This document shows, in pieces, positions 5,707 to 60,519 of a stretch of DNA of 64,000 nt. Position numbers and translations under genes: made by a program. Position 1 is the first letter of the stretch; every line of letters begins with the position of its first letter. Under the pieces are notes generated by a model that ran no database searches, was not told the DNA's origin, and worked only from the letters and a program-made list of their open reading frames with translations. Source of the DNA: Eledone cirrhosa (Eukaryota); assembly GCA_964016885.1 (NCBI GenBank), contig OZ024753.1:9920001-9984000 (forward strand), written 5' to 3'.

Positions 5707-5709
<3 letters not shown>

Positions 5710-5782
5710 CAAAATGAAAATCCGAAGGCAAGGTAAAATTCCAATTGGAATTTTACCTTGCCCTCAGATTTTCATTTTGATA
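5707..5782. repeat. Near-perfect 76-bp palindrome at the left end of a (TA)n-flanked element (about 5707-5922)
   Basis: TATCAAAATGAAAATCCGAAGGCAAGGTAAAATTCCAA|TTGGAATTTTACCTTGCCCTCAGATTTTCATTTTGATA. Confidence 0.9.
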
Positions 5783-6746: not shown

Positions 6747-7312
6747 AACTCTGGATGTCGGTGAGCATGTCCAGCTAACGTCAGTCTCCTCTGTGTCACT
6801 TTTGAGCTGACTTTTGGGATGCTCCCATACAGCTCTGAGTTTTTCATCCTCAGTGTATACTGATTAATGTTCAGAGCCATCCTCAGCATTCTCGTGTAAC
6901 ACCCATCCACCATCTGAGTGAGTTTCTTGGTCAGTGTCCAAGTCTCAGACCCATACAGCAGCACAGACTCCACTACAGCAATGAAGAGGCGGACTTTCAG
7001 GTCTACGAAGGTCCGACTTCCACACCGATCTCAAGCTGTGGCACGCCGCCCAGGCCTTGCCCTTCCTCTCAACCACATCACCTTCCGTATTCCCAATCTT
7101 TGCTCCCCACCTACATTGCACTCAGTGCTCCTTTGGGAGCCCCTACATGGACACACTAGAAGAGGAAGACCAAGGTTAACGTATGTTGATGCCCTAAGGA
7201 CAGACACCGGTCTGTTGGAGACGCAGGACATGGCAGCGATAATGAGGGACAGAGACCGCTGGAGAGAACTCGTCCATGGATCTCGGGAATTTTACCCGCC
7301 TTAGATAGATAT
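6743..7312 (+). mobile_element. RTE-X-like LINE 3' fragment with a 5' inversion (6743-7111 inverted, 7112-7304 direct)
   Basis: The minus strand encodes ...KGKAWAACHSLRSVWKSDL/KVRLFIAVVESVLLYGSETWTLT...LAGHAHRHPELT. The plus strand continues TLHSVLLWEPLHGHTRRGRPRLTY...DRDRWR and ends in TAGAT repeats. Confidence 0.85.
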
Positions 7313-7391
7313 ATATGTAGATGAGATATTTAATTTGTTAGAAATCCAACATGACTTTCCAGAAATAACTTGAACCGTTAAGGTCATGTCA

Positions 7392-7483: not shown

Positions 7484-8535
7484 AGTTTCCATTTATTTAA
7501 TATCATTGAATTATATATGTATATACATATCTCTCTCTGTATATTATATATATATATATACGCAGACAGAGAGATTATTTATGTTCATACATACATACAT
7601 AAAAAAACTTTCCCAACTGAAACTTTTTTGCACCCATTTTTGCGATTAAGTAAAAACAGAGTTATTGTTCTTGAGATTTCAGCTGAGAGAAATTTGGGGA
7701 ACTGATGTCGCTAAATCGTCAAAGTATTTACCTCCACTGTTGCATCATGGGAGGGGTAATGGCTGAATTTTTTTTAACGACGGCAATTTTTTAAATTTGT
7801 TTCCCAGCATCTTGTTCCTTGTTTGGTATTAATGAATAAATATGAAATAATTAATTTATTGCACACCTCTCTTTCATCTGAACATCAAGTTACCATGGGA
7901 GCGAGAGGGCAAGGGTAACGTAAAATCCCGAAACCGGTGTCAATTTTACACTATTATTCTCAAAATAATTGTTTCCACTTTTGGCACAAGGCCAAATATT
8001 ACCTAGTGCATTACTGGTACTTTATTTTATCGACCCCGTAAGAATGAAAGGCAAAGGCTCTACCGATACTGCCAATCCACTCTCAAAATAATTTTCTACT
8101 TTTGGCACAAGGCCAGCAATTATCTTAGTGTATTACTGGTACTTTATTTTATCGACTCCGTAAGAATGAAAGGCAAAGGCCGTAACTCTATGCGTCAAAG
8201 GATGGCGTCCGATCCTCTACCGATACTACCAATCCACTCTCAAAATAATGTCAGATATTATTTTGAAGTTTTATTTAACTTCTATCGCTACACTTTCCGT
8301 ATTTATAATTAAATTAATAAATTTAAGGTTTTAATACTTTAAATATAAAACTTTCGACAAGTTTTCTGGTAGCTTCGTTGGTAGGAGTAATGGGTATTCA
8401 TTGTTTCGTAACGAGGTGAGTGGTTCAATATCGAACTGCCGTAGTAGGAATACTTTTATTCTATTATACAAATGATATATTGTATATTATATATTTATAT
8501 GTATATATTTCCATTTATTAATATATTGAGTATTT

Positions 8536-8987
8536 ACTCCAGTAAATCTGTTAAGTGCTCTATATCAGTTATAAACTTTTAAGTTTGTTGGAATCCCAAC
8601 AAATTAAATATAACTTCTACATATATGTAGTATTTCCGTCGGAAAGGTACAGGAAAAAAGAGTGCTCTATGTAAGCTATAGAGCTTATTAGTTATGTAAT
8701 AAACAAGATAAGATAATTATTTCATTTACCAGTGGTTTCTTGAAGATAGATGTATCTATCTTCAAGGAACCACTGGTAAATGAAATAATTATCTTATCTT
8801 GTTTATTACATAACTAATAAGCTCTATAGCTTACATAGAGCACTCTTTTTTCCTGTACCTTTCCGACGGAAATACTACATATAAAAATATATATACATAT
8901 ATGTAGAAGTTATATCTAATTTGTTGGGATTCCAACAAACTTAAAAGTTTATAACTGATATAGAGCACTTAACAGTTTTACTGGAGT
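8536..8987. repeat. Fold-back palindrome of about 450 bp centred at 8752/8753
   Basis: The arms are near-perfect reverse complements, from ACTCCAGTAAA...TTGAAGATAGAT to ATCTATCTTCAA...TTTACTGGAGT, with a small TA-rich insertion at about 8884-8900. Confidence 0.95.
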
Positions 8988-9014
8988 GTGTGTGTGTGTA
9001 TATATATATATATA

Positions 9015-9998
9015 CCACTATTAGCCGCTAGAGGGTTCTCCCTAAAAATGAAAGGCAGGTTATACGATGCCTGCATACATACGAACAGCAATGCTGCATG
9101 GCAGTGAGACCTGAGCATTGTGTGCAGAGGATATACGCAGACTAGAGAGGAACGAAGCTTGCATGCTCCGCTGGATGTGCAATAGTAATATACGTGAACG
9201 GCAAAGCATAAACGAACTAAGGAAAAAATTAGAAATAAGAGGGATCAGATGTTGTTTACTCGAGAGAAGGCTACGTTGGTACGGTCACGTGATGCGCATG
9301 AAAGACGACAGCTGTATAACAAAGTGCAGGGCAATAAAGATAGACGGTAGCCACGGAGTAGGCAGACCCAGAAAAACATGGGACGAGCTGATAAATTCCG
9401 ACCTCACACGCTTACACCTCTCCAAGACAATGTCACTGGACCGAGACCTTTGGCGGTACTCAGTAATAGAGAAGACCCGCCTTACCTAAATACAAAGTAA
9501 AAACCTACTACAGTCAGTAGGCATCTCTATCAAAACACACCCCCGTCCCACCACCCTCCACCCCACCCACACCGCCCCTTTCAATGTAAAGTTATGTTGG
9601 TCCCACAACATCCAGGCCGAAACAAATGAGATCGTGTAGGTGTCACGACAAAAAACACACAGTCCACGCTGTAAATGTGGCCGTGTAGGCAACACGGTAA
9701 AAACCTCCCAGCCCCACACTGTAAATGTGGTTGGTGTTAGGAAGGGCATCCAGCTGTAGAAAACCCGCCAGACAGTCCACGCTGTAATGTGGCCGTGTAG
9801 GCAACACGGTAAAAACCTCCCAGCCCCACACTGTAAATGTGGTTGGTGTTAGGAAGGGCATCCAACTGTAGAAAACCCGCCAGACAGTCCTATGCGAGCA
9901 AGACAACCACTCTTGCCTCAAGTGGGAAAACCCCCGTCCAAACCCATGCAAGCGTGGAATACGGACGCTAAACCTGATGATGATGATGATGATGATGA
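9015..9998 (+). mobile_element. RTE LINE 3' fragment (ORF end plus 3' UTR with an internal duplication). Related fragments at 10635-10908, 20548-21135 and 48335-48860
   Basis: ORF 9118-9489 is nearly identical to the C-terminus of ORF 12376-14049. Same 3' UTR and (GAT)n tail. Confidence 0.9.
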
Positions 9999-12279: not shown

Positions 12280-14049
12280 GCAGCTTGGAAGTGTCACTAT
12301 GAAAGGCTACTAAATGAGGAGAATAAATGGGAGAAAGACAGTCTCCCCCATGTCGACCCAATAGAGGGACCAGCAGTGTTAGTCGAGGGGAGTATAATAA
12401 GTAAGGCAATCAAGGATATGAAGACAGGTAAGGCGGCTGGGCCTTCGGAAATAGTTGCTGAGATGCTGAAGGCATCTGGCACGGTGGGACACACCATGGT
12501 CACCCGCATAGTTAACCAAGTCGTACAGAATGGGGCTGTTCCGAAGGACTGGCATAGCAGCATCATCGTTAACTGTTATAAGGGTAAAGGAGACGCCCTA
12601 GATAGGAGTAACTATAGAGGCATTAAATTAATCGACCAGGTCATGAAGGTCACAGAAAAAGTAATAGCGCAACTAATCAGAGAGAGAATTGACCTAGATG
12701 AAATGCAGTTCGGGTTTGTGTCAGGCAAAAGTACCACAGACGCTCTTTTCATAGTACGACAACTACAGGAGAAGTACCTAGCTAAAGGTAAACCCCTCTA
12801 CTTAGCTTTTGTCGACTTGGAGAAAGCCTTCGACAGAGTCCCCCGCTCCATTATCTGGTGGGCTCTTAGAAAACTAGGCGTTGACGAATGGCTTGTGAGG
12901 GCTATACAAGCCATGTATAAAGAAACAGTCAGCAAGGTTAGAATTAACAACGAATATAGTGAAGAGTTTAGCGTAAAAGTTGGCGTCCATCAGGGCTCTG
13001 TTCTCAGCCCCCTACTATTTATTATTGCCCTTCAGGCTATAACAGAGGAGTTCAAGACAGGCTGCCCATGGGAACTCCTATACGCAGACGACCTGACACT
13101 CATAGCGGAATCAATGGCCGAGCTAGAGAAGAAATTCCAAACATGGAAGCACGGCCTAGAGTCAAAAGGACTTAAAATTAACCTGGCTAAGACCAAAGTT
13201 CTAGTTTGTAGGAAAGAAAACAAGGCGGCGGTCCCTTCTGGGAAATGGTCGTGCTCGGTGTGTAGGAAAGGCGTAGGTAGAAACTCCATTTTGTGTCCTA
13301 AATGCAAAGTATGGGTGCATAAAAGATGTAGTGGGATCACAGGTAAGCTAACTAAGAACATAGATTTTACATGTGGCCGGTGTTCTGGTGCAATAAGTAG
13401 CAGCAAGTGCCCACACAATACTAGCTCTTTCAATTGCGCAGAGGGTTCTATAGAAATAGTGGACAGCTTCCGTTACCTGGGCGATAAAATCAGCAGTGGG
13501 GGAGGGTGCTCTGAAAGTACTGTAGCTAGAGTCAGAACTGGTTGGAAAAAGTTCAGAGAGCTTATACCACTATTAGCTGCTAAAGGGTTCTCCCTAAAAA
13601 TGAAAGGCAGGTTGTACGATGCCTGCATACGAACAGCAATGTTGCATGGCAGTGAGACCTGGGCATTGTGTGCAGAGGATATACGCAGACTAGAGAGGAA
13701 CGAAGCTTGCATGCTCCGCTGGATGTGTAACAGTAATATACGTGAACGGCAAAGCATAAACGAACTAAGGAAAAAATTAGAGATAAGAGGGATCAGATGT
13801 TGTTTACTCGAGAGAAGGCTACGTTGGTATGGACACGTGATGCGCATGAAAGTCGATAGCTGTATAACAAAGTGCAGGGCAATAAAGATAGACGGTAGCC
13901 ACGGAATAGGCAGACCTAGAAAAACCTGGGACGAGCTGATAAACTCCGACCTCACACACTTACACCTCTCCAAGACAATGTCACTGGACCGAGACCTTTG
14001 GCGGTACTCAGTAACAGAGAAGACCCGCCTTGCCAGTAGGCATCTCTAA
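12280..14049 (+). CDS. Reverse transcriptase ORF of a 5'-truncated RTE-clade LINE, with a PHD-like Cys/His finger
   Basis: Motifs NYRGIKL, QFGF, FVDLEKAFDRV, GVHQGSVLSP, LLYADD, FRYLG and HGSETW. C4HC3-like CSVC...CPKC...H..C...CGRC. The frame is open from 12280 (AAWKCHYERLLN). The endonuclease domain is missing. Confidence 0.95.
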   Translation, partial: AAWKCHYERLLNEENKWEKDSLPHVDPIEGPAVLVEGSIISKAIKDMKTGKAAGPSEIVAEMLKASGTVGHTMVTRIVNQVVQNGAVPKDWHSSIIVNCYKGKGDALDRSNYRGIKLIDQVMKVTEKVIAQLIRERIDLDEMQFGFVSGKSTTDALFIVRQLQEKYLAKGKPLYLAFVDLEKAFDRVPRSIIWWALRKLGVDEWLVRAIQAMYKETVSKVRINNEYSEEFSVKVGVHQGSVLSPLLFIIALQAITEEFKTGCPWELLYADDLTLIAESMAELEKKFQTWKHGLESKGLKINLAKTKVLVCRKENKAAVPSGKWSCSVCRKGVGRNSILCPKCKVWVHKRCSGITGKLTKNIDFTCGRCSGAISSSKCPHNTSSFNCAEGSIEIVDSFRYLGDKISSGGGCSESTVARVRTGWKKFRELIPLLAAKGFSLKMKGRLYDACIRTAMLHGSETWALCAEDIRRLERNEACMLRWMCNSNIRERQSINELRKKLEIRGIRCCLLERRLRWYGHVMRMKVDSCITKCRAIKIDGSHGIGRPRKTWDELINSDLTHLHLSKTMSLDRDLWRYSVTEKTRLASRHL

Positions 14050-18098: not shown

Positions 18099-18859
18099 TT
18101 ATATCATATTAAATTCTAGAACGCGAAAATGGCTTTCAGCGTTACCATATCGTGTACGCAATAGCTGGTCTGTTTGTTGGTTGGGATCGATTTGTAAAAC
18201 ATTGTGATTGTGGTTGCTGTTGTTGTTATAGGTAAAGTTGCATGGATAGTCAGCAGTTGTCGGTTCGTACTGATGAGAATGAAAATGAAGAGGAAAACGA
18301 TGATAAAGATTTGATTGATGGTCTTGGAATGATTCGGGTGATCTGCTGACATGGCAATCTGGTGTGGCGCTGCTGTAGGAATATGGGGGTGGTGGTGGAG
18401 GTAAATATGGTGGGTGTGCCAGATGTGTTTGACTAGTGGGTGTCAAAGAAGACGGTGGGGTAGGAGTCTGGCGACAAGATGAAGTCGAAGCACTGGAAGG
18501 TGGAGCAGGGCTGTCAGATCGACTGGCAGACAAGCCACCAGAAGCTGAAGCTGGCGACGATGGTGCTGGTGATGATGGATTTTGGTCGGAGGAATAAGAT
18601 GCCAGACGTCTCCGTGTGATTCTATAATCTCGTGGTTCTTTACCTTCACTTGATATAAGGGCAGGTAGAATACGACGCCTAGCATTTATATACCAGTTGT
18701 TCACCTGCTGGATTGTTAGACCTGTGTCATTGGCCATCTTACGTTTCGTTTCTTCACAAGGATAGGCACGGAATCTGTTTCGATACAACCATTTCATGAG
18801 ATAATCAACAGCATCCTTTGGAAGATTGCCACGAGTCCGCTTCCTTTTAGAGCAGTTAT
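18099..18859 (-). CDS. TGIF: TGIF-family TALE homeobox protein, last (homeodomain-containing) coding exon
   Basis: KRKRTRGNLPKDAVDYLMKWLYRNRFRAYPCEETK...QVNNWYINARRRILP followed by the TGIF-specific extension EGKEPRDYRITRR. Poly-T tract plus TTCCATTCTAG acceptor at 18860-18861 (phase 1). TAA stop at 18099. Confidence 0.9.
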
Positions 18860-18984
18860 CTAGAATGGAAAAAAAAAAAAAAAAAAAAGTTTATTTCAAT
18901 GAATCAATTATATATATATATATAGTATTAATATATAAAGGAACAAAGAATCAGTGTTGCTGTATCATACACATATTTATTTTT

Positions 18985-22688: not shown

Positions 22689-22901
22689 TATATTAATAAA
22701 AGGAATTCCAACTTTGTCTGATTTACTCGTTTTATTTACAATCCTTTAAAATTTATAATGTAATTATAATGAAATAGTATGGTAGAACATTAACATTTAA
22801 TATTCTACCATACTATTTCATTATAATACCATTATAAATTTTAAAGGATTGTAAATAAAACGAGTAAATCAGACAAAGTTGGAATACCTTTTATTAATAT
22901 A
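22689..22901. repeat. Fold-back palindrome of about 210 bp centred near 22795, ending in (TA)n
   Basis: TATTAATAAAAGGAATTCCAACTTTGTCTGATTTACTCG...GGTAGAA mirrors TTCTACC...CGAGTAAATCAGACAAAGTTGGAATACCTTTTATTAATA. Confidence 0.95.
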
Positions 22902-23452: not shown

Positions 23453-23544
23453 GTTAAACAAGGTTCAATGAATAAATCAAAGAATAAAGTTTTACAATAG
23501 ATTAGAAGCACTCCACAGTGATGGTTTTCCGGAGTTATTAATAT

Positions 23545-23611
23545 TATTTTATCTGATGAGGACGTACTGTTGAAGATAGCTCAGTACCTCTGAAATATGT
23601 ATAATAAAATA
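23545..23611 (+). ncRNA. Minimal type I hammerhead ribozyme (Penelope pLTR type)
   Basis: TATTTTAT-CTGATGA-GGACGTACTG...CAGTACCTCT-GAAA-TATGTA-TA-ATAAAATA. Stem I is a perfect 8 bp, stem II is present, and the AUA cleavage triplet is intact. Confidence 0.8.
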
Positions 23612-23691: not shown

Positions 23692-23759
23692 CAAAGAGGT
23701 TGTGGTAAAATACCAAGTGGACCAGAACGCACCAGAGTACTCAATACTTAGGGTAGGAG

Positions 23760-26157: not shown

Positions 26158-26326
26158 CAAAGAAAGTGTGGTAAGGAACCAGAGTACTCGATACTTAGGG
26201 TAATAGGTAAAGAGTCAGGCCCCCGACGGCTGAGCTCTGGCCGTTTATACAGCTAGATCCGAACAGTTAGGATCTAGCTGTCGAAACGGCCGGAGCTCAG
26301 CCGTCGGGGGCCTGACTATTTTCCTA
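26157..26326 (-). mobile_element. Short (TA)n-flanked element with a 123-bp terminal hairpin (26204-26326). Second copy at 63756-63948
   Basis: AGAGTCAGGCCCCCGACGGCTGAGCTC...GATCC-loop-GGATC...GAGCTCAGCCGTCGGGGGCCTGACT. The unpaired extension matches 23690-23760 and 63880-63948. Confidence 0.8.
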
Positions 26327-26489
26327 TATATATATATATATATATATATATGTAGATAAATCTACCAAGAGTTTACGGTAGTGTCCAATCCGTATGAAGA
26401 ACTCAATGTATTCCGGATATCATGGAAAGAAGAGATGTAATGAAAATCCACTTTCGGTGAAAGATAAACGGTATACAGAGTCAAGATAA

Positions 26490-28403
26490 AAGATAAACCT
26501 GAAAGATCACAAATCTAACTTTAACTCTAATCCTTCTATTAGACTTATATGTCCCTCCAAATCAGATATTGGAATAATTAGCAAAAAAATTTTAGATAGA
26601 GTCATCCCACAAATAAGAAAATATGTTATTTTACCACTCTGGGAAAACACCTCCCAGGTAATTAATTGGTTTAAAAATATTAGGTGTAAATCTTCTGCTT
26701 CTTTCCTACAATTTGATATAGATAATTACTATTCTTCTATATCACCCATACTCCTGAACAAAGCATTAATATTTGCTAAAAATAGATCTAATTTAACTTC
26801 GGATGACATTAACATTATTACACATGCTAGACAAACACTTATTGAATTTCAGAATGAATACTGGACCAGAAACACATACAGTAATCTTTTTGATATTACT
26901 ATGGGTTCAAGCGATTCCGCCCAAATTACTGATCTTGTGGGCCTCTTTCTCCTTTTCAACATAAATGCCTCTTTTCCCCACCTCAAAGGTGGTTTATATC
27001 GTGATGACTGTCTTCTTCTTTCTAACAACCTTAGCCTTTCAGAAATCGAAAAAAACAAAAAGCATATTAGAACTTTCCTTAAAGACTATTATAATCTTAA
27101 TATTACTTTTGAAAAAACAAGTAAAGTAGTAAACTTCCTAGATATAACTTTAGATTTAGCTACGGGTATATACCAACCTTACCATAAACCTAACCAAAAC
27201 TTACATTACATACACTCACAATCTAATCACCCTAAATCTATCCTTAAAAACCTTGCATATAATATATCACTTAGAATTTCTAACCTTTCTTCTAACCAAG
27301 ATGTATTTGATAAAAATGCGACCTTTTATAATGAAGCTCTAGATAGAAGTGGCCACAAAAATAGATTAGAGTATATACCTTCTACTAAAAATACTGAAAG
27401 CATACAGCATAATATTACCAACAAACACCAAATGAAAAGTACACACCTAAATGCCACCCACAGTATACCCCAAAATACTAAATCTTCTAATATAAAGTAT
27501 AGTAACCCTCAAAAAACTACTCATCATACAACTATAATAAATATTAATAATAAAACTCCTAATAAAAAAGATAAAACACCTAAATCTACAAATATAACTA
27601 AAAATAGTTGTGGTGAGATCATTAACATTAATCCTCCTGGTAAAAATCATGATACAACATATAAAAATAATAAAAATAATAAACAACATAGAAACCGTAA
27701 TAGACGAGTTACTTGGTATAATGCTCCTTTTAATTTACAAGTTAAGGATAATATTGCTAAAAATTTTTTTTATATCCTTGAGAAAAACTTCCCGCCAAAC
27801 CACAAATACCATCAAATCTTAAATAGATCTACAGTTAAATTCTCATACTCTACAACAAATAACATAAAACAAAATATAAGTGCATATAATGCATATAAAT
27901 GTAAGAAAACCATAAGTATACCACCAGTACATCAAATTAACAATAATATCTCCTCAAATACAGAATTAACGAAAGGATGTAACTGTAGAAACAAAACAAA
28001 CTGCCCATTAAAAGGGAATTGTCTTGTTAACAACATAGTCTATAAATGTAATGTTAAAACTAAAGATTCTATCTGCTCATATATAGGAGCTACCTCTAAC
28101 AATTTTAAGACAAGGTATAATACCCACAAACATAGCTTTAAAAATGCCGCACTGGCTAATACAACATCTCTAGCAGAAAAAATCAATAGTTATAAAAATA
28201 AAAATATAAAATATGATTTGACCTGGAGTGTGCTCAAAAGAGCCACCCCTTATCAAAATAATAGAAAGGAATGTAGATTATGTTCCCAAGAACTATTTGA
28301 AATAATGAAGTCTAGGGATATCTTATTAAATAAAAGACAGGAATTAATTATATCGTGTAATCATAAACTAAAAAAAACATTTAAATATTATAAACCTAAT
28401 TAA
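26490..28403 (+). CDS. Penelope-like element polyprotein (RT plus C-terminal GIY-YIG endonuclease), Naiad-like, 5'-truncated
   Basis: The frame is open from about 26490 (KINLKDHKSNFNSNPSIRLICPSKSDIG). RT motifs FLQFDIDNYYSSI, TMGSSDSAQ, GLYRDD and VNFLDITL. CNC..CPL.G.C followed by IVY...YIG.T..FKTRY..H (GIY-YIG), then CRLC...CNH. Confidence 0.92.
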   Translation, partial: KINLKDHKSNFNSNPSIRLICPSKSDIGIISKKILDRVIPQIRKYVILPLWENTSQVINWFKNIRCKSSASFLQFDIDNYYSSISPILLNKALIFAKNRSNLTSDDINIITHARQTLIEFQNEYWTRNTYSNLFDITMGSSDSAQITDLVGLFLLFNINASFPHLKGGLYRDDCLLLSNNLSLSEIEKNKKHIRTFLKDYYNLNITFEKTSKVVNFLDITLDLATGIYQPYHKPNQNLHYIHSQSNHPKSILKNLAYNISLRISNLSSNQDVFDKNATFYNEALDRSGHKNRLEYIPSTKNTESIQHNITNKHQMKSTHLNATHSIPQNTKSSNIKYSNPQKTTHHTTIININNKTPNKKDKTPKSTNITKNSCGEIININPPGKNHDTTYKNNKNNKQHRNRNRRVTWYNAPFNLQVKDNIAKNFFYILEKNFPPNHKYHQILNRSTVKFSYSTTNNIKQNISAYNAYKCKKTISIPPVHQINNNISSNTELTKGCNCRNKTNCPLKGNCLVNNIVYKCNVKTKDSICSYIGATSNNFKTRYNTHKHSFKNAALANTTSLAEKINSYKNKNIKYDLTWSVLKRATPYQNNRKECRLCSQELFEIMKSRDILLNKRQELIISCNHKLKKTFKYYKPN

Positions 28404-30189
28404 TAACATTATTCTAGAATTTAATTTAATTTAAATGTTAGTTAACCTATAAATTTAATTTAATTAATATTTTATTACAGATGAGAAAATATTATGTAAT
28501 CATAAATTTTGAAAAACATTTAAATATTACTAATATATACTCAGTAATTTAATTTATAGATTAATTTTAATTTATTTTAACCTTTTATTATAATTTTTTT
28601 TATTATAATTCTTTTACAGATAAAATATAACAAAATAATATCATGTATCCAATGACGGAGAAAGAATTTTTAGTATTATAGACCTAATTAATATACATTT
28701 TGGAAATATATTTATTATTTGGTTTTAGTTTTAATCAACCTAAAACTTTAATTTTAATTTGCTTAAAATTAGTATCCTTGTACAGACGAATTGCAGAATG
28801 TCATGTAATCATAGAATGGGATGTGTTTTGGATATATACCTAGTTAATATATTCTGTGCAATTTTTTGAAAAAGATATGTATATCTATATGTATATGTAT
28901 ATGTGTGTGTTGTGTATGTGTATCTGTATGTATGTTTATGTGAGTATATATGTATATATGTGTATATATATGTATATATATATATATATGTGTGTATATG
29001 TATATGTATGTGTATGTGTATGTATATGTATATGTATGCGTATTAATTTTGATTTTTATTTGCATATAATTATATTATGATATTGATGAAATACAATATC
29101 TGCTTTATGTATTGTATACCTAATTAACATATACTAATTAACGTATACTATTGAAATAAATATATAATTTTTAATTTAGTTAACATATAATTTATATGCT
29201 ACTACCGATGTAATACTTTATTTTATTTTTATTTGGGTTTCTTTTCCCTATTACTAAATTCATCTCCTAATATTGATACCATAACGTTATTAACTTTAAT
29301 TTAGTTATAATGTAATTAATAATCTACTACTGTTTGACTTCATAATTCTGCTTCAAATATTATAAACCTAACTAATTTACACCTTGGAAATCAATATGTT
29401 GACTATCTTTGGTTTAATTAACATATGATTAATGGTATACTTTTTTGTTTTGAGATGCATGGATTTCGTGTTTCCTAGCACTGAAAATATGTAAGAACAT
29501 ACATTGAATTAAGATACGGAAAATATTATATGTTTCTTGAAACATATATTTACTTTGATCCCCTTCTCCAAACCCCCCCTTTCCCCCATACTATTATCAT
29601 CTGTTTTTGTAAGCGTATATGTATGAATATATGTGTAGGTGGGTGTCTATATAGGTTTTGGTATTTATTTCTAAATATAAAAATACATATATGAGCATGT
29701 AAATATGAATGTAAGATTGAGTGTGTATATATGATTGTACATACATATGTATGTATATATATGTATATATATGTATTATATATGTATGTGTATGTGAATG
29801 TGTGGTATGTATATGTGTATGTATATGTATATATGTGTATGTATGTGTATGCTTGTATATAGGAATATATATATGTGTATATATGTATGTATATGTATAT
29901 GCGTGTTTGTATGTATGTGTATATGGGTTCTGTATATATTTGTATGTCTCTCTATTTATATGTTTATCTTCGTATCTATGTGATATATGTGTGTGTGTGT
30001 GCACGTATGCATATGTATGTGTTTGTGTGTGTTTGTATGTGTGTGTGTATATATATGTGTATTTGCGCACACTCACATACACATATATATATATATATAT
30101 GTGAGTGTGTATGTGTGTCTGTGTGTGTGTGTGTGTGTGTATGTGTATATATATATATATATATATTTATGTATATATATATATATAGA

Positions 30190-34301: not shown

Positions 34302-36331
34302 CTGGTAGGTAAGTGACCTATGGGTTGTTGAAATGGTCTGAATAAGATCATCACCCATCAGTCAATTTATTTCACAATCACATGGTCAAGGGAGTCATTT
34401 TTTAAAAATTTTGAATAACAATAACTACTATTGTTGAATACAAAAGAAAGAAAAAAGACCAGGATGGTAACAAAGTAGTAGTAGTAGTGATTGGTCATTT
34501 AAAATAAATTAGAGAGCGATGGGTAATGAGAAGTAAAATAAGGTGTTTTAAATGCTTCTCTTCGTTACTAAGGGGTCACAAATTAAATAGAAGAAAGCAG
34601 CAGTATCTTACATACACATAATCAATTAATTATTGCTAGGAACCTTAAAAATATAATACACAAAAATATATACCGTATTTCCCGGCGCCGAAGACGCTTC
34701 GTACCCTAATTTTGACAACCAAAAATTTGATTAAAAAAATTATAAACAACCTTCGGCCTCCAGACTTTGAGACAAGATATTAAACAAGAGAGGTTAACAC
34801 GATATCAAGTCAATTAAGCAACGATCACTTAGGATTAGAGTATATATATTTAATAGAGTTAACTCGATGTCAAACCTGTTGGGATTTCTCATTAATTATC
34901 ACTAGCCACGTGTCGAATTTTATACAGCAGTCGTCAAATCTCAAATATATATCGAATAGGCTACGTAGCCGGTAAACCCTAAAGGGACGTAATACACACA
35001 TCGCTTTAGCGTTTCAGCAGCCCCTTCCTTCCTCAATCATTCATTAGATGTGTGTGTTTATAATAATTATTTTGTATAATAATTATTTTGTATTTATGAA
35101 TATGTACGAGTAGATAAGTGTGTGTGTGTGTGTATGTGTGGGTTTGTACTTCTGTTGTCTGTATATGTTTATATATTTACCTGTAGATGTGTGTATATGT
35201 AACTAAAGCGCAACGTACGTTACGAATGGACAACTAAATGATTTTAACTTGTTTTTTAACAATTGATGGTGTAAAAGATAGATTTCAAATTGTCTTAACT
35301 CAGACCGTAAAGGGCCGCAACACATGGTGTCTGACACGATTACCGGCTTCATAGCCTCTTCCAAATTAAATACAACACTTGTCAAATCTCAAATATATTT
35401 CACAGCCAAATACTTGTGAAATATTTATCAGATTTCACTTAATTTCAAGGCACATCTACAGATTATCGATCGGCGTCATCCATTTTGGAAACTTCTGTCT
35501 TAGAGTAAAGGATAAAGATATCCCATAACTCCTTGTGGAGTGGTAGAGGCACCGTCAAACGACGTGCCTGGGGCACTTTTAAACCTGGCGGAGCCCAACC
35601 CTCTCCAGGTCTGACTGAACACAGCCGATTTTTTTCTATAGAGGAAGAATCGAACCCAGTACTGGACTGGTACTTTGTTTTTATCGACCTCGAGAGGATG
35701 AAAGGCAAAGCTGAACCCGGCGGGATTTGAACTGAGAGCGTGCAATGAGGTGGGACAAATACCGTAAAACATTCTATCTGACGTCTTAACCACTCTGCAA
35801 ATTCTTCTGTCTTAGAATAACGTCAAATTAAGTTGGTTGCTTGTTGTTTAACCCTAGGCAAGCTTTGATTAAATCTATAGCATGCATATAGGTAGGGTGG
35901 ACTGGGTGATTTTTTTTCCATGGCACCAGTACAACAACCATTTGACAGTGTGGAGCAGGTGATTTTTTTTTTCATAGCACCAGTACAACCATTTCACAGC
36001 ATTTTTTCCCCCATGACACCTAGACTACCACCTTACAGAGTGGACTGGGTGATTTTTGCCATGTCTGGGGTAAATATGTTGAGAGAATTGCCTAAAATAA
36101 TGTGATTTAACCATTCAATAAATAGAGATCGATAACATGAGAATCAGACGAAGTACAGGGGTTGATATAATTGACTAAAGAAAAAAAAAAGCTACTGAAG
36201 GTCGTGCCCCAGGATGGCCACACACCAATAAGTGAAACCTGTTGAAGGACTTTAAAAATTGAAAATAGATATATGTAGATTAATATAATCATATTTCATA
36301 ATCTCTTAAAGGCTCCAACATTTGTTTCTAT

Positions 36332-39300
36332 TTGGTGGTGATAGTAGTGGTGGTGGTAGTGGTGGTGATAGTAGTGGTGGTTGTGGTAGTGGTGGTGATA
36401 GTAGTGGTGGTTGTGGTAGTGGTGGTGATAGTAGTGGTGATGGTGGTTGTGGTAGTGGTGGTAGTGGTGATAGTAGTGGTGATGGTGGTTGTGGTAGTGG
36501 TGGTGATAGTAGTGGTGGTTGTGGTAGTGGTGGTGATAGTAGTTGTGGTAGTGGTGGTGATAGTAGTGGTGGTAGTGGTGGTGATAGTAGTGGTGATGGT
36601 GGTTGGTAGTGGTGGTAGTGGTGATAGTAGTGGTGATGGTGGTTGTGGTAGTGGTGGTGATAGTAGTGGTGGTTGTGGTAGTGGTGGTGATAGTAGTGGT
36701 GGTAGTGGTGATAGTAGTGGTGATGGTGGTTGTGGTAGTGGTGGTGATAGTAGAGGTGGTTGTGGTAGTGGTGGTGATAGTAGTGGTGGTAGTGGTGATA
36801 GTAGTGGTGATGGTGGTTGTGGTAGTGGTGGTGGTGATAGTGTTGATGGTGATAGTAGTGGTGGTGATGGTGATATTGATGGTAGTAGTGGTGGTGGTGG
36901 TGATAGTAGTGGTGGTGGTAGTGGTGATAGTAGTGGTGGTGATGGTTGTGGTAGTGGTGGTGATGGTGATAGTAGTGGTAGTGGTGGTGGTGATAGTAGT
37001 GGTGATGATGGTGATATTGATGATGGTTGTAGTGGTGGTGGTAGTGGTGATAGTGTTGATGGTAGTGGTGACAGTGGAAGTAATGGTGGTGGTGGTGTCA
37101 GTGGAAGTAGTGGTGGTGGTGGTGACAGTGGAAGTAATGATGGTGGTGGTGACAGTGGAAGTAATGATGGTGGTGGTGACAGTGGAAGTAGTGATGGTGG
37201 TGGTGACAGTGGAAGTAGTGATGGTGGTGGTGACAGTGGAAGTAATGGTGGTGGTGGTGACAGTGGAAGTAGTGATGGTGGTGGTGACAGTGGAAGTAGT
37301 GGTGGTAGTGGTGACAGTGGAAGTAAAGATGGTGGTGGTGACAGTGGAAGTAGTAATGGTGGTGGTGACAGTGGTAGTAGTGGTGGTGGTGGTGGTAGTG
37401 GAATTAAAGATGGTGGTGGTGACAGTGGAAGTAGTGATGGTGGTGGTGACAGTGGAAGTAAAGATGGTGGTGGTGACAGTGGAAGTAGTGATGGTGGTGG
37501 TGACAGTGGAAGTGATGATGGTGGTGGTGACAGTGGAAGTAGTGGTGGTAGTGGTGACAGTGGAAGTGATGATGGTGGTGGTGACAGTGGAAGTGATGAT
37601 GGTGGTGGTGACAGTGGAAGTAGTGGTGGTGGTGGTGACAGTGGAAGTAGTGGTGGTAGTGGTGACAGTGGAAGTAGTGATGGTGGTGGTGGTGACAGTG
37701 GAAGTAAAGATGGTGGTGGTAGTGGAAGTAGTGATGGTGGTTTTGACAGTGGAAGTAGTGGTGGTAGTGGTGGTGACAGTGGTAGTAGTGGTGGTGGTGG
37801 TGACAGTGGAAGTAGTGGTGGTGGTGGTGGTGACAGTGGTAGTAGTGGTGGTGGTGGTGACAGTGGAAGTAGTGGTGGTGGTGGTGGTGACAGCGGAAGT
37901 AGTGGTGGTGGTGGTAGTGGAAGTAAAGATGGTGGTGGTGACAGTGGAAGTGATGATGGTGGTGGTGACAGTGGTAGTAGTGGTGGTGGTGGTGACAGTG
38001 GAAGTAGTGGTGGTGGTGGTGGTGACAGTGGTAGTAGTGGTGGTGGTGGTGACAGTGGAAGTAGTGGTGGTGGTGGTGGTGACAGTGGTAGTAGTGGTGG
38101 TGGTGGTGACAGTGGAAGTAGTGGTGGTGGTGGTGGTGACAGCGGAAGTAGTGGTGGTGGTGGTGGTAGTGGAAGTAAAGATGGTGGTGGTGACAGTGGA
38201 AGTAGTGATGGTGGTGGTGGTGACAGTGGAAGTAAAGATGGTGGTGGTGACAGTGGAAGTAGTGATGGTGGTGGTGACAGTGGAAGTAGTGGTGGTGGTG
38301 GTGGTGACAGTGGTAGTAGTGGTGGTGGTGGTGACAGTGGAAGTAGTGGTGGTGGTGGTGGTGACAGCGGAAGTAGTGGTGGTGGTGGTGGTAGTGGAAG
38401 TAAAGATGGTGGTGGTGACAGTGGAAGTAATGATGGTGGTGGTGACAGTGGAAGTAGTGGTGGTGGTGGTGGTGACAGTGGTAGTAGTGGTGGTGGTGGT
38501 GACAGTGGAAGTAGTGGTGGTGGTGGTGGTGACAGCGGAAGTAGTGGTGGTGGTGGTGACAGTGGAAGTAAAGATGGTGGTGGTGACAGTGGAAGTAGTG
38601 ATGGTGGTGGTGACAGTGGAAGTAGTGGTGGTGGTGGTGACAGTGGAAGTAATGATGGTGGTGGTGACAGTGGAAGTAGTGATGGTGGTGGTGACAGTGG
38701 AAGTAAAGATGGTGGTGGTGACAGTGGAAGTAGTGATGGTGGTGGTGACAGTGGAAGTAGTGATGGTGGTGGTGACAGTGGAAGTAGTGATGGTGGTGGT
38801 GACAGTGGAAGTAGTGGTGACAGTGGAAGTAAAGATGGTGGTGGTGACAGTGGAAGTAGTGATGGTGGTGGTGACAGTGGAAGTAGTGGTGACAGTGGAA
38901 GTAAAGATGGTGGTGGTGACAGTGGAAGTAGTGGTGGTAGTGGTGACAGTGGAAGTAAAGATGGTGGTGGTGACAGTGGATGTAGTGATGGTGGTGGTGA
39001 CAGTGGAAGTAATGGTGGTGGTGGTGACAGTGGTAGTAGTGGTGGCGGTGGTGACAGTGGAAGTAAAGATGGTGGTGGTGACAGTGGAAGTAGTGATGGT
39101 GGTGGTGACAGTGGAAGTAAAGATGGTGGTGGTGACAGTGGAAGTAGTGATGGTGGTGGTGACAGTGGAAGTAAAGATGGTGGTGGTGACAGTGGAAGTA
39201 GTGATGGTGGTGGTGACAGTGGAAGTAGTGGTGGTGGTGGTGACAGTGGAAGTGATGATGGTGGTGGTGACAGTGGAAGTAGTGATGGTGGTGGTGACAG

Positions 39301-42300
39301 TGGTAGTAGTGGTGGTGGTGGTGACAGTGGAAGTAGTGGTGGTGGTGGTGGTGACAGCGGAAGTAGTGGTGGTGGTGGTGGTAGTGGAAGTAAAGATGGT
39401 GGTGGTGACAGTGGAAGTAGTGATGGTGGTGGTGACAGTGGAAGTAAAGATGGTGGTGGTGACAGTGGAAGTAGTGATGGTGGTGGTGACAGTGGAAGTG
39501 ATGATGGTGGTGGTGACAGTGGAAGTAGTGATGGTGGTGGTGACAGTGGTAGTAGTGGTGGTGGTGGTGACAGTGGAAGTAGTGGTGGTGGTGGTGGTGA
39601 CAGCGGAAGTAGTGGTGGTGGTGGTGGTAGTGGAAGTAAAGATGGTGGTGGTGACAGTGGAAGTAGTGATGGTGGTGGTGACAGTGGAAGTAGTGGTGGT
39701 GGTGGTGACAGTGGAAGTAATGATGGTGGTGGTGACAGTGGAAGTAGTGATGGTGGTGGTGACAGTGGAAGTAATGATGGTGGTGGTGACAGTGGAAGTA
39801 GTGATGGTGGTGGTGACAGTGGAAGTAGTGATGGTGGTGGTGACAGTGGAAGTAGTGATGGTGGTGGTGACAGTGGAAGTAGTGATGGTGGTGGTGACAG
39901 TGGAAGTAGTGATGGTGGTGGTGGTGACAGTGGTAGTAGTGGTGGTGGTGGTGACAGTGGAAGTAATGATGGTAGTGGTGACAGTGGTAGTAGTGGTGGT
40001 AGTGGAAGTAAAGATGGTGGTGGTGACAGTGGAAGTAATGATGGTGGTGGTGACAGTGGAAGTAGTGATGGTGGTGGTGACAGTGGAAGTAGTGATGGTG
40101 GTGGTGACAGTGGAAGTAGTGGTGGTAGTGGTGACAGTGGAAGTAGTGATGGTGGTGGTGACAGTGGAAGTAGTGGTGGTAGTGGTGACAGTGGAAGTAA
40201 TGGTGGTGGTGGTGACAGTGGAAGTAAAGATGGTGGTGGTAGTGGAAGTAATGATGGTGGTGGTGACAGTGGAAGTAGTGGTGGTGGTGGTGACAGTGGA
40301 AGTAAAGATGGTAGTGGTGACAGTGGAAGTAATGATGGTGGTGGTGACAGTGGAAGTAGTGGTGGTGGTGGTGGTGACAGCGGAAGTAGTGGTGGTGGTG
40401 GTGACAGTGGAAGTAATGATGGTGGTGGTGACAGTGGAAGTAAAGATGGTGGTGGTGACAGTGGAAGTAGTGGTGGTGGTGGTGGTGACAGCGGAAGTAG
40501 TGGTGGTGGTGGTGACAGTGGAAGTAATGATGGTGGTGGTGACAGTGGAAGTAAAGATGGTAGTGGTGACAGTGGAAGTAAAGATGGTGGTGGTGACAGT
40601 GGAGGTAATGATGGTGGTGGTGACAGTGGAAGTAGTGGTGGTAGTGGTGACAGTGGAAGTAAAGATGGTGGTGGTGACAGTGGATGTAGTGGTGGTGGTG
40701 GTGACAGTGGAAGTAGTGGTGGTAGTGGTGACAGTGGAAGTAAAGATGGTGGTGGTGACAGTGGATGTAGTGGTGGTGGTGGTGACAGTGGAAGTAAAGA
40801 TGGTGGTGGTGACAGTGGAAGTAGTGATGGTGGTGGTGACAGTGGAAGTAGTGATGGTGGTGGTGACAGTGGAAGTAGTGATGGTGACAGTGGAAGTAGT
40901 GGTGGTGGTGGTGACAGTGGAAGTAATGATGGTGGTGGTGACAGTGGAAGTAGTGATGGTGGTGGTGACAGTGGAAGTAATGATGGTGGTGGTGACAGTG
41001 GAAGTAGTGATGGTGGTGGTGGTGACAGTGGAAGTAATGATGGTGGTGGTGACAGTGGAAGTAGTGATGGTGGTGGTGGTGACAGTGGAAGTAAAGATGG
41101 TGGTGGTGACAGTGGAAGTAGTGATGGTGGTGGTGACAGTGGAAGTAATGGTGGTGGTGGTGACAGTGGAAGTAGTGATGGTGGTGGTGACAGTGGAAGT
41201 AATGATGGTGGTGGTGACAGTGGAAGTAATGGTGGTGGTGGTGACAGTGGAAGTAATGGTGGTGGTGGTGACAGTGGAAGTAATGATGGTGGTGGTGACA
41301 GTGGAAGTAAAGATGGTGGTGGTGACAGTGGAAGTAAAGATGGTGGTGGTGACAGTGGAGGTAATGATGGTGGTGGTGACAGTGGAAGTAGTGGTGGTAG
41401 TGGTGACAGTGGAAGTAAAGATGGTGGTGGTGACAGTGGATGTAGTGGTGGTGGTGGTGACAGTGGAAGTAGTGGTGGTAGTGGTGACAGTGGAAGTAAA
41501 GATGGTGGTGGTGACAGTGGATGTAGTGGTGGTGGTGGTGACAGTGGAAGTAAAGATGGTGGTGGTGACAGTGGAAGTAGTGATGGTGGTGGTGACAGTG
41601 GAAGTAGTGATGGTGGTGGTGACAGTGGAAGTAGTGATGGTGACAGTGGAAGTAGTGGTGGTGGTGGTGACAGTGGAAGTAATGATGGTGGTGGTGACAG
41701 TGGAAGTAGTGATGGTGGTGGTGACAGTGGAAGTAATGATGGTGGTGGTGACAGTGGAAGTAGTGATGGTGGTGGTGACAGTGGAAGTAATGGTGGTGGT
41801 GGTGACAGTGGAAGTAGTGATGGTGGTGGTGACAGTGGAAGTAATGATGGTGGTGGTGACAGTGGAAGTAATGGTGGTGGTGGTGACAGTGGAAGTAATG
41901 GTGGTGGTGGTGACAGTGGAAGTAGTGGTGGTAGTGGTGACAGTGGAAGTAATGATGGTGGTGGTGACAGTGGAAGTAGTGATGGTGGTGGTGACAGTGG
42001 AAGTAGTGATGGTGGTGGTGACAGTGGAAGTAGTGATGGTGGTGGTGACAGTGGAAGTAGTGATGGTGGTGGTGACAGTGGAAGTAGTGATGGTGGTGGT
42101 GACAGTGGTGGTAGTGGTGACAGTGGAAGTAATGATGGTGGTGGTGACAGTGGAAGTAATGATGGTGGTGGTGACAGTGGAAGTAGTGATGGTGGTGGTG
42201 ACAGTGGAAGTAATGATGGTGGTGGTGACAGTGGAAGTAGTGGTGGTAGTGGTGACAGTGGAAGTAAAGATGGTGGTGGTGACAGTGGAAGTAGTGGTGG

Positions 42301-44680
42301 TAGTGGTGACAGTGGAAGTAGTGGTGGTGGTGGTGACAGTGGAAGTAATGATGGTGGTGGTGACAGTGGAAGTAATGATGGTGGTGGTGACAGTGGAAGT
42401 AGTGATGGTGGTGGTGACAGTGGAAGTAGTGATGGTGGTGGTGACAGTGGAAGTAGTGGTGGTAGTGGTGACAGTGGAAGTAGTGGTGGTGGTGGTGACA
42501 GTGGAAGTAGTGATGGTGGTGGTGGTAGTGGAAGTAATGATGGTGGTGGTGACAGTGGAAGTAGTGGTGGTGGTGGTGACAGTGGAAGTAGTGATGGTGG
42601 TGGTGACAGTGGAAGTAGTGATGGTAGTGGTGACAGTGGAAGTAGTGATGGTAGTGGTGACAGTGGTAGTAGTGATGGTGGTGGTGACAGTGGAAGTAGT
42701 GGTGGTGGTGGTGACAGTGGAAGTAATGATGGTGGTGGTGACAGTGGAAGTAAAGATGGTGGTGGTGACAGTGGAAGTAGTGATGGTGGTGGTGACAGTG
42801 GAAGTAGTGATGGTGGTGGTGACAGTGGAAGTAGTGGTGGTGGTGGTGACAGTGGAAGTAATGATGGTGGTGGTGACAGTGGAAGTAGTGGTGGTAGTGG
42901 TGACAGTGGAAGTAGTGGTGGTGGTGGTGACAGTGGAAGTAAAGATGGTGGTGGTAGTGGAAGTAATGATGGTGGTGGTGACAGTGGAAGTAATGATGGT
43001 GGTGGTGACAGTGGAAGTAGTGGTGGTGGTGGTGACAGTGGAAGTAGTGGTGGTGGTGGTGGTGACAGTGGAAGTAGTGGTGGTGGTGGTGACAGTGGAA
43101 GTAGTGGTGGTGGTGGTGACAGTGGAAGTAGTGGTGGTGGTGGTGACAGTGGAAGTAGTGATGGTGGTGGTGACAGTGGAAGTAGTGGTGGTGGTGGTGA
43201 CAGTGGAAGTAGTGGTGGTGGTGGTGACAGTGGATGTAGTGATGGTAGTGGTGACAGTGGAAGTAGTGGTGGTGGTGGTGACAGTGGAAGTAGTGGTGGT
43301 GGTGGTGACAGTGGAAGTAGTGATGGTGGTGGTGACAGTGGAAGTAGTGGTGGTGGTGGTGACAGTGGAAGTAAAGATGGTGGTGGTGACAGTGGAAGTA
43401 AAGATGGTGGTGGTGACAGTGGAAGTAAAGATGGTGGTGGTGACAGTGGAAGTAGTGGTGGTGGTGGTGACAGTGGAAGTAGTGGTGGTAGTGGTGACAG
43501 TGGAAGTAGTGATGGTAGTGGTGACAGTGGAAGTAGTGGTGGTGGTGGTGGTGACAGCGGAAGTAGTGGTGGTGGTGGTGACAGTGGAAGTAATGATGGT
43601 GGTGGTAGTGGAAGTAATGATGGTGGTGGTGACAGTGGAAGTAATGATGGTGGTGGTGACAGTGGAAGTAGTGATGGTAGTGGTGACAGTGGAAGTAGTG
43701 GTGGTGGTGGTGACAGTGGAAGTAAAGATGGTGGTGGTAGTGGAAGTAATGATGGTGGTGGTGACAGTGGAAGTAGTGGTGGTAGTGGTGACAGTGGAAG
43801 TAATGGTGGTGGTGGTGACAGTGGAAGTAGTGGTGGTAGTGGTGACAGTGGAAGTAGTGGTGGTGGTGGTGACAGTGGAAGTAAAGATGGTGGTGGTAGT
43901 GGAAGTAATGATGGTGGTGGTGACAGTGGAAGTAGTGGTGGTAGTGGTGACAGTGGAAGTAATGGTGGTGGTGGTGACAGTGGAAGTAGTGATGGTAGTG
44001 GTGACAGTGGAAGTAGTGGTGGTGGTGGTGACAGTGGAAGTAAAGATGGTGGTGGTAGTGGAAGTAATGATGGTGGTGGTGACAGTGGAAGTAATGATGG
44101 TGGTGGTGACAGTGGAAGTAGTGGTGGTAGTGGTGACAGTGGAAGTAATGGTGGTGGTGGTGACAGTGGAAGTAATGATGGTGGTGGTGGTGACAGTGGA
44201 AGTAAAGATGGTGGTGGTAGTGGAAGTAATGATGGTGGTGGTGGTGACAGTGGAAGTAATGATGGTGGTGGTGACAGTGGAAGTAATGATGGTGGTGGTG
44301 ACAGTGGAAGTAGTGGTGGTAGTGGTGACAGTGGAAGTAATGATGGTGGTGGTGACAGTGGAAGTAATGATGGTGGTGGTGACAGTGGAAGTAATGATGG
44401 TGGTGGTGACAGTGGAAGTAGTGGTGGTAGTGGTGACAGTGGAAGTAGTGGTGGTGGTGGTAGTGGAAGTAAAGATGGTGGTGGTGACAGTGGAAGTAAT
44501 GGTGGTGGTGGTAGTGGAAGTAGTGGTGGTAGTGGTGGTAGTGGAAGTAATGATGGTGGTAGTGGTAGTAATGATGGTAGTGGTGACAGTGGAAGTAGTG
44601 ATGGTGGTGGTGGTAGTGGTAGTAATGATGGTGGTGGTGACAGTGGTAGTGATGATGGTGGTGGTGACAGTGGAAGTGAT
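36332..44680. repeat. 8.3-kb (GGT)-based satellite. From about 37070 the unit is about 27 bp, GGTGGTGGTGACAGTGGAAGTARWGAT
   Basis: Direct inspection. The trinucleotide substructure keeps several frames on both strands open. Confidence 0.95.
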
Positions 44681-45029
44681 GTACAGTAGAGATTCTAAAC
44701 AAATGTCAATCAGAATAAACAATAACTTCCCATAATTTTGTTTTCTTTTCAAAGTCAATCTGGTGTGAGAGGGTGTCTTCACTTATTGCTGTTATGTGTA
44801 TGTGTGTGACCTATTGCTATCATGTGTGTGTGTGACCTATTGCTATCATGTGTGTGTATGTGTCCCCCTATTTGCTGTCACTGTATGTGTGTGTGTGTTA
44901 GATCATCTCTCCATATCCCAGGCCTTCTTTATATAAATGTCATGCAGTTGTTACATGCAACTGAGTATTACTTGGAAGTATATACCCCATGCTGGAGCAT
45001 GGGGTATATACTTCGCACTTCCCACCTCC

Positions 45030-56019: not shown

Positions 56020-56305
56020 GTTATGGTTTCTTCAATTTAAAAGGAAATCCTTATTGCTGGCATGTTTACATACACATTGGCACAGTCTCAGCCACCCACT
56101 CTGTATATATATACACACATATACTTTATACACACACATGCATATATATATATATATATATATATGAGGAGTGTAAAATCGTGGAACATATTTACAACTC
56201 TGTGAATATGCTGTGGTTTCCACGAACAAGTATTAGTTAGGTTCTAAAGAAAATTCCACGAACAACTGAAACTGCAAATGCCAGGGGTACACTGTATATA
56301 TATAT

Positions 56306-56369
56306 ATTATTCGTTCTGACGACTGAAGACAAATATCTGTCTTCAAGAAACCACTGGTAATGAAATAAT
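56306..56369 (+). ncRNA. Type I hammerhead motif at the 5' end of a (TA)n-flanked remnant (to about 56462), same family as the 8536-8987 palindrome
   Basis: ATTATTCGTT-CTGACGA-CTGAAGACA AATATC TGTCTTCAA-GAAA-CCACTGG-TA-ATGAAATAAT. The downstream 100 bp match 8765-8880. Confidence 0.75.
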
Positions 56370-56713
56370 TATCTTATGTTGTTTATTACATAACTAAAAA
56401 GCTCTGTAGCCTACATAGAGCACTCTCTTTTCCTTTACCTTTCCTATGGAAATACTTCATTTATATTTATATATTAAAACACACAAACACAATATATTAA
56501 TTAGTTAGTGGGGACAATTAACACTTCTCACAAAGACTGATTAAAAAAAAAGAAGTCATTATTAAAAGGTGGATTGGCAGAATCGGAAGAGCATCGGACA
56601 ACATGCTTAACAGCATAGTGTTACGGCCTTTTACGTTCTGAGTTTAAACCCCGCCATGGTTAGCTTTGCCTTCCATCCTTATAGGGATCATGGATCTTGC
56701 AGATCACCTCATT

Positions 56714-59700: not shown

Positions 59701-60260
59701 GAGGCTATGCTAAACTCAATGCCACCATCTGAGGCTGTGCTAAACTCAATGCCACCATCTGAGGCTATGCTAAACTCAATGCCACCATCTGAGGCTGTGC
59801 TAAACTCAATGCCACCATCTGAGGCTGTGCTAAACTCAATGCCACCATCTGAGGCTGTGCTAAACTCAATGCCACCATCTAAGGCTGTGCTAAACTCAAT
59901 GCCACCATCTGAGGCTGTGCTAAACTCAATGCCACCATCTAAGGCTGTGCTAAACTCAATGCCACCATCTAAGGCTGTGCTAAACTCAATGCCACCATCT
60001 GAGGCTGTGCTAAACTCAATGCCACCATCTAAGGCTATGCTAAACTCAATGCCACCATCTGAGGCTATGCTAAACTCAATGCCACCATCTGAGGCTGTGC
60101 TAAACTCAATGCCACCATCTAAGGCTGTGCTAAACTCAATGCCACCATCTGAGGCTGTGCTAAACTCAATGCCACCATCTAAGGCTGTGCTAAACTCAAT
60201 GCCACCATCTAAGGCTGTGCTAAACTCAATGCCACCACCTGAGGCTGTGCTAAACTCAAT
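56714..60260. repeat. 30-bp satellite, about 118 highly homogeneous copies
   Basis: Unit GCCACCATCTGAGGCTRTGCTAAACTCAAT, head-to-tail with no spacers. Confidence 0.97.
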
Positions 60261-60519
60261 CTGCAATATTCTGACTGCACCAACTGGCAACAAGCAAAGC
60301 CCCACCCTTACAGTTGTTGTTGTATATGTCATACAGTGTAGTTACTGTTGTCGAACCCACTCTGAAAGTTGGTTTTTAATTCTACTTTTTCTAAGTTATT
60401 TTCTCTACTGCCCCAAGGCTGGGCTGGTGTCATTGTCAACTTTGATATATTTATCTGGTGTCTCTTTTGAAGATGTAGCCCTGTTCTCTTAATTCAGACA
60501 CACCCCTCTATTACATACA

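Follow-up and report, generated by a model that had tools for sequence, protein, structure and literature searches.

The giant palindrome at 8536-8987 of the window, which denotes the whole analysed stretch of 64,000 nucleotides from contig OZ024753.1 of Eledone cirrhosa, turns around at the place of a hammerhead helix II. It is likely an instance of a known Penelope-type structure, an ordinary by-product of folded-back cDNA. The placement of the turn at helix II is solid here, suggestive for a second repeat family, and testable. With a confidence that falls a little short of even, we read the locus as the mirror-duplicated stub of two related repeats, termed A and A', left by one Penelope-type insertion whose cDNA snapped back on helix II and served as the primer for its own copy. 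What is left is a dead stub that shows no sign of function. No open reading frame of at least 110 aa overlaps it, and Rfam returned only generic hairpin (miRNA-type) matches below the gathering score at this position.

The palindrome exists as the initial annotation had claimed. It is about 450 nt long, and its arms (8536-8751 and 8754-8987) differ by three substitutions (8767, 8916 and 8976) over 216 aligned positions plus one gap event, which is the 18-nt surplus of the right arm at the junction of its inner and outer parts. The inner arms, 130 nt each and separated by 2 nt, are 99% complementary, and the outer arms (8536-8629 and 8894-8987, 94 nt each) are 98% complementary. An 8-nt direct repeat lies at the junction of inner and outer parts, in two copies in the right arm and a single one in the left (8622-8629). 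The ends of the palindrome are situated in low-complexity DNA. Folded as DNA, the centre stem reached -10.2 kcal/mol (z -6.9) and is among the stronger short hairpins of the window. None of three shuffled windows contained a palindrome of this class. We also considered a MITE and rejected it, since the locus has no spacer, its ends are unequal and its flanks are asymmetric. Perfect hairpins are a known class of artefact. However, the two arms are set apart by their substitutions and the 18-nt indel, and over all six palindromes of the window the arm divergence ranges from 1/134 to 7/63, which reads as an age series and speaks against an artefact. Moreover, the palindromes end on microsatellites and have their axes on meaningful hairpins. 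A fold-back chimera from library preparation or assembly is thus highly improbable.

Table 1. Coordinates of the palindrome, its flanks and its related repeats in the window.
Feature	Position	Strand	Remark
Second A'-like copy	7312..7370	+	85% over 41 nt, E 8e-7; z 7.1
Left outer segment A', diverged relative of family A	8520..8629	-	z 5.9, 0/300 shuffles
Left inner arm, 3' half of family A, likely first-strand cDNA (putative role)	8622..8751	-	88.8% to 56324-56463; passes the 3'-half test
Symmetry centre, 12-bp stem with 2-nt loop (8752-8753)	8740..8765	.	at the place of hammerhead helix II
Right inner arm, mirror of the 3' half of family A	8754..8883	+	GGAA in place of GAAA (8767)
TA-rich 18-nt surplus of the right arm	8884..8901	+	10-nt linker and second copy of the 8-nt direct repeat
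Right outer arm, copy of A'	8894..8987	+	98% to left outer arm; ends 16 nt before the 3' end of A'
(GT)n(AT)n microsatellite, likely other side of the target site (putative role)	8988..9014	.	GT overlap with the short arm
5'-truncated LINE fragment, outside the palindrome	9015..9990	+	95% to 13567-13848
Intact reference copy of family A, hammerhead-like	56305..56463	+	one A missing after the cleavage site

Both inner arms matched 56324-56463 with 88-89% identity over 143 nt (E about 1e-40). The right arm had been claimed to match the 3' half of a hammerhead element, and over its inner 130 nt it is indeed 88% identical to the 3' half of the repeat at 56305-56463. The left inner arm contains an intact GAAA, which is GGAA in the right arm, followed by the palindromic helix III of three pairs, the UA cleavage site, the 3' strand of stem I and the body of the repeat, and the 3' end of family A lies at 8622. 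The copy at 56.3 kb is solitary and displays the type I hammerhead core CUGANGA...GAAA...UH together with helix II (56316-56359), consisting of CTGACGA at 56316-56322, helix II at 56324-56345, GAAA at 56347-56350, helix III at 56351-56357 and UA at 56358-56359. Helix III of family A is small and palindromic, with three pairs and a C-G beside the core. A putative helix I flanking the cleavage site would comprise 10 pairs between the 5' strand of the 56.3-kb copy and the 3' strand of the palindrome, the 56.3-kb copy being one A short. Its helix II starts with U-A, and the G10.1-C11.1 pair is absent. This layout agrees with Penelope-type hammerheads as described in the accessible text of PMC4209133. 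Rfam reported no hammerhead family at 56.3 kb up to E 10, nor across the whole window up to E 1. A strict hammerhead descriptor, which was too strict, found 0 matches in the window, and a revised one found three sites, none of them in family A; the 56.3-kb copy failed the revised descriptor because an A is missing behind the cleavage site. From its sequence we consider this copy hammerhead-like and not a proven hammerhead, with putative self-cleavage. A metagenome scan for family A gave 0 matches, and we take the repeats of the window to resemble those of octopus genomes.

The palindrome contains no more of the hammerhead than its 3' half, so it cannot form a ribozyme in cis. The CTGACGA half is missing, as had been stated before: neither strand has a match to CTGANGA...GAAA between 8.5 and 9.0 kb, and nothing in this locus matches the 5' part of the 56.3-kb copy. 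A functional ribozyme at 8536-8987 was ruled out, as the 5' core is absent. In the intact copy, helix II is centred at 56334.5, 12.5 nt ahead of GAAA, and the palindrome axis (8752/8753) precedes the GAAA position by 13.5 nt. The axis and the helix II centre of the 56.3-kb repeat thus differ by no more than 1 nt, which confirms the initial placement of the axis at stem II. The cDNA strand of helix II of the intact copy folds as a stable DNA hairpin of -6.3 kcal/mol (z -3.3). A scan for mirrored hammerhead 3' halves gave 66 loci, of which none had a long arm and the longest extension was 21 nt.

The symmetry does continue for about 90 bp beyond the match to family A, but this outer DNA is A', a relative of family A, and not an unrelated flank. 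The outer arm aligned with the segment of family A following the ribozyme in the same orientation (z 7.1, 0/300 shuffles, within 182 pair-and-orientation tests), with 56 of 81 columns identical (about 69%). It also aligned with 7312-7370 (z 7.1) and weakly with 23453-23546 (z 4.1). Over 2556 sliding windows, its best non-self matches were all hammerhead-associated repeats, with scores of 50-36, and all others scored at most 33. Since the outer 90 nt or so are repeat-derived and related to family A, the supposed flanking DNA is not unique sequence, and the alignments rule out unique host DNA. Nor do these 90 bp belong to the standard unit of family A, because they do not follow the 56.3-kb copy, the single copy compared. 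The proposed check of whether 8536-8622 belongs to the family consensus or to the flank thus has a divided outcome that partly counts against the original interpretation: the segment is a related repeat, albeit not within the family A unit.

Judged from these alignments, each arm is a tandem of A followed by A'. A' carries no hammerhead, and a second copy of the A-A' junction was not found in the window. When extended to 8520, the left A' aligns with the 3' terminus of family A, which places its 3' end at about 8520-8535, outside the palindrome. Because the left A' is complete and the right A' is 16 nt short, the left arm represents the template and the right arm its shortened copy. The 7312 copy follows a TA-rich tract and shares its starting point with the outer arm. 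The starts of the A'-like copies (8629/8894 and 7312) roughly align with the ribozyme cleavage site of family A in a weak alignment, and the 5' ends of these copies may have been set by self-cleavage.

For the origin of the palindrome, we propose that an endonuclease would have nicked TA-rich DNA near 8520 and that reverse transcription, primed by this nick, would have begun with the 3' end of A'. Copying would have gone on into A, which either followed on a tandem RNA or was reached by a jump to another RNA molecule, and would have halted just past helix II. The near-perfect stem could then have snapped back, allowing return synthesis along the cDNA, and the new end would have joined the (GT)n(AT)n tract by the 2-nt GT overlap. 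If only cDNA was copied, no unique host DNA would have been duplicated, and the hairpin would count while ribozyme catalysis would have no role. A' was possibly part of the cDNA from the start, since it is a relative of family A in tandem orientation and its natural 3' end lies 16 nt beyond the duplicated part. This position of the copy end favours the restriction to cDNA, as does the finding that the short arm runs past the element end in none of the three other placeable palindromes (26.2, 62.5 and 63.8 kb). Against it, the A-A' junction was found only once in the window, A and A' are only about 69% alike, which requires one enzyme to have handled both, and the 18-nt difference between the arms exactly at the A/A' junction also fits priming there. 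A tandem cDNA template fits at least as well as copying of adjacent host DNA, which we regard as possible at 8536-8987, though less likely than not.

Priming near 8623 followed by copying of the target, the sequence of events originally suggested, was not established, as the outer segment is the same-orientation relative with its 3' end 16 nt farther out; the turn at helix II is supported. In such a scenario, A' would have been resident beside the TA/TG microsatellite, the RNA of A would have been primed at a nick at 8622-8629, and after the snap-back at helix II synthesis would have run about 90 nt into A'. A composite RNA would not be needed. The natural 3' end of family A meets A' with an 8-nt overlap, like microhomology priming, the 18-nt difference is located at this very junction, and the A'-like copy at 7312 also has a TA-rich tract at the corresponding end. 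Inverted genomic duplications beside L1 insertions (10.1101/2024.12.14.628481) and the rarer snap-back of R2 onto nearby target DNA (PMC11371274) are known, as far as the accessible text of these reports goes. However, copying ended 16 nt short of the 3' terminus of A', which on the best reading is the expected priming place, the short arm passes the element end in none of the other three placeable palindromes, and resection or strand displacement of the duplex flank would be required. Even if a resident A' was copied, the duplicated DNA would be a related repeat and not unique host sequence. On balance, we find this course of events possible, and a close rival of snap-back within a tandem cDNA.

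Alternatively, two cDNAs could have been made on a tandem A-A' RNA, one from each cut strand, with starts 16 nt apart, and both could have stopped in helix II and annealed by its self-complementary stem, which would make helix II a joining site. According to the accessible text of PMC11167929, both strands are cut and extended by a Penelope-type protein in purified form, with starts at two internal sites close to each other, and such a process would yield one longer and one shorter arm. We nevertheless deem it improbable: both cDNAs must end within the same 25 nt, and the arms are 98.6% identical, compared with 88% for the other family copy, which demands a single source for both RNAs.

Six hairpin palindromes were found in the window (5707-5782, 8536-8987, 22689-22901, 26203-26327, 62434-62703 and 63755-63881). 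Every one of them adjoins a TA/TG/CA microsatellite at exactly one end, compared with 916 of 20,000 placements (4.6%). In the 3'-half test, GAAAC, helix III and UH occurred 13-19 nt from the axis in three of the six, namely 8536-8987 and two palindromes of a family C, compared with 156 of 20,000 random positions. The criteria of this test were set post hoc with the cases already known; P is 6e-4 for two of the five other palindromes, and 0.03 when family C is counted once and 8536-8987 is excluded. The remaining three axes are without a hammerhead 3' half. Besides the palindromes, 23 short hairpins were present in the window, two of which are hammerhead helix II. This proportion bears on an origin independent of reverse transcription, in which replication template switching or break repair would have folded at helix II long after A had inserted beside A', losing the 5' half of the ribozyme and duplicating 220 nt. 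Fold-back and template-switch duplications at short hairpins are known from the accessible portions of PMC11724301 and PMC8794818, and the strength of the centre stem among the hairpins of the window would suit them. But helix II makes up only 2/23 of the other short hairpins, yet such a position is found at 3/6 axes, and all six palindromes end on a microsatellite, the known type of Penelope target. We therefore consider an origin without reverse transcription very unlikely.

Family C is represented by the palindromes 26203-26327 and 63755-63881, and also by 23701-23759. The axes of the two palindromes lie ahead of GAAA, a helix III of four pairs and UC. Both short arms end at the same site on (TA)n, and the long arm reaches the 3' end of the family. 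As the window contains no intact copy of family C, the axis is only helix-II-like. The two copies have one differing site at which the arms within each copy agree, a weak hint in the sequences that the mirror may be rebuilt with each insertion. The palindrome at 62434-62703 has a complete hammerhead in each arm, with its axis about 48 nt upstream of the core. This axis falls on the natural hairpin at 7349-7389 in a weak alignment. Within 62434-62800, the right arm is tail to tail with a segment that is found at 23453-23546 in tandem upstream of a related hammerhead. No hammerhead motif was found in the palindromes 22689-22901 and 5707-5782, both of which end on (TA)n. There is also a smaller palindrome of 19 bp at about 44995.

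The head-to-head inverted copy, the palindrome at the junction and the shorter arm at 8536-8987 are among the features described for Penelope-type insertions, and so is an AT-rich or microsatellite target, here the (GT)n(AT)n at the right end. No open frame with reverse transcriptase and GIY-YIG is linked to the repeat, nor would one be expected for a non-autonomous stub. Elsewhere in the window, an open frame of 637 codons (26490-28403, + strand) has ESM Atlas neighbours of the RT/GIY-YIG type at 0.96-0.97, and it carries motifs that we take to be Penelope-type; it was unrecognised by Pfam and by a strict motif scan. On these neighbours and motifs, it is a candidate Penelope-type frame. Comparison of its flanks with A and A' gave no score above z 3.5 in 36 comparisons. 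Downstream of it, 28465-28540 is hammerhead-like, with CAGATGA in place of CTGATGA. Taken as a whole, the initial annotation is upheld in the turn at helix II, the left arm as template and the Penelope-type layout with the short arm on the TA/TG microsatellite, and the two family C palindromes are in line with it; its priming near 8623 and copying of the target are a possibility.

In the accessible text of Arkhipova et al. 2013 (PMC3846280), inverted Penelope pLTRs, one shorter than its partner, have palindromes of 18 and 38 bp at the pLTR 5' ends, and self-priming with an antisense template is concluded to be their best explanation. Craig et al. 2021 (PMC8557442) describe inverted 5' copies, partial tandems and a microsatellite bias as typical and call their origin undefined. 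The endonuclease-bearing elements of these two reports share with 8536-8987 the head-to-head inverted 5'-truncated copy, the junction palindrome, the shorter arm, the AT-rich or microsatellite target, partial tandems and the proposed self-priming. In contrast, 8536-8987 is only a stub of about 230 nt without an open reading frame, its tandem joins two diverged families, and its junction palindrome can be identified as hammerhead helix II. Furthermore, an antisense RNA was proposed as the template in those systems, whereas at 8536-8987 the antisense strand would be cDNA. In vitro, a Penelope-type protein cut and extended both strands at AT-rich DNA, started 111-118 nt past the start of helix II, and inserted without needing ribozyme cleavage, according to the accessible text of Frangieh et al. 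2024 (PMC11167929). A squid genome contains both hammerheads and Penelope elements, as stated in the accessible part of PMC6962438.

Family A and type I Penelope-type hammerheads have in common the CUGANGA and GAAA...UH core, a long helix II, an unpaired base 5' of helix II and a small palindromic helix III. Mostly solitary copies, with some opposite-strand pairs 100-700 bp apart, are likewise shared. The differences are that 8536-8987 has only the 3' half, and that the 56.3-kb copy, of putative activity, is without the G10.1-C11.1 pair and is one base short downstream of the cleavage site. The non-LTR retrozymes of 10.64898/2026.07.22.740005, in its accessible text, are similarly short non-coding repeats with type I hammerheads derived from Penelope pLTRs and scattered as monomers; 8536-8987 has no tandem array with a hammerhead in each unit. 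For R2, cDNA 3' ends were reported in 2024 to snap back and to prime synthesis ahead of 5' junction formation, with the cDNA itself as template or, more rarely, target DNA close by (PMC11371274). R2 differs in belonging to another class of retroelement and in the use of engineered templates in human cells, and the accessible text makes no link to a hammerhead helix. The inverted duplications and foldbacks of L1 (10.1101/2024.12.14.628481) are also primed by self-annealing of small hairpins and duplicate genomic DNA beside the insertion, although, as far as the accessible text goes, at the reciprocal end and by 2-bp homology in genomic DNA, not by a hairpin inside the cDNA.

The palindrome is thus a known kind of structure. 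Self-priming at head-to-head Penelope palindromes (PMC3846280) and snap-back of R2 cDNA (PMC11371274) are known from the accessible texts, and the link to helix II is one testable refinement. A statement equating the junction palindrome with hammerhead helix II was not found in the literature searched, most subscription papers and supplements being outside its scope. Should the turn take place at helix II, the junction palindromes described in 2013 would get a name. It appears rather doubtful to us that Penelope-type elements of different families use helix II as an inbuilt primer for turning round in second-strand synthesis, and that the returning strand can run beyond the priming site, so that adjacent chromosomal DNA is duplicated as an inverted copy. 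If both the turn-around and the overrun were true, a ribozyme fold would have a second, non-catalytic job, and this genome would steadily gain long hairpins from Penelope-type elements.

The LINE fragment beside the palindrome contains an internal tandem duplication of 112 nt at 9674-9890. Its relative at 13567-13848 lies within the open frame 12280-14049, which has an RVT_1 domain (E 1e-32), and this LINE also has a PHD-like finger. Very long frames that are open on both strands, probably tandem repeats, are found at 36296-44782 and 56778-60492. Finally, an open frame on the minus strand (18102-18890) has a Homeobox_KN (TALE-type) domain with an E-value of 7.5e-15.
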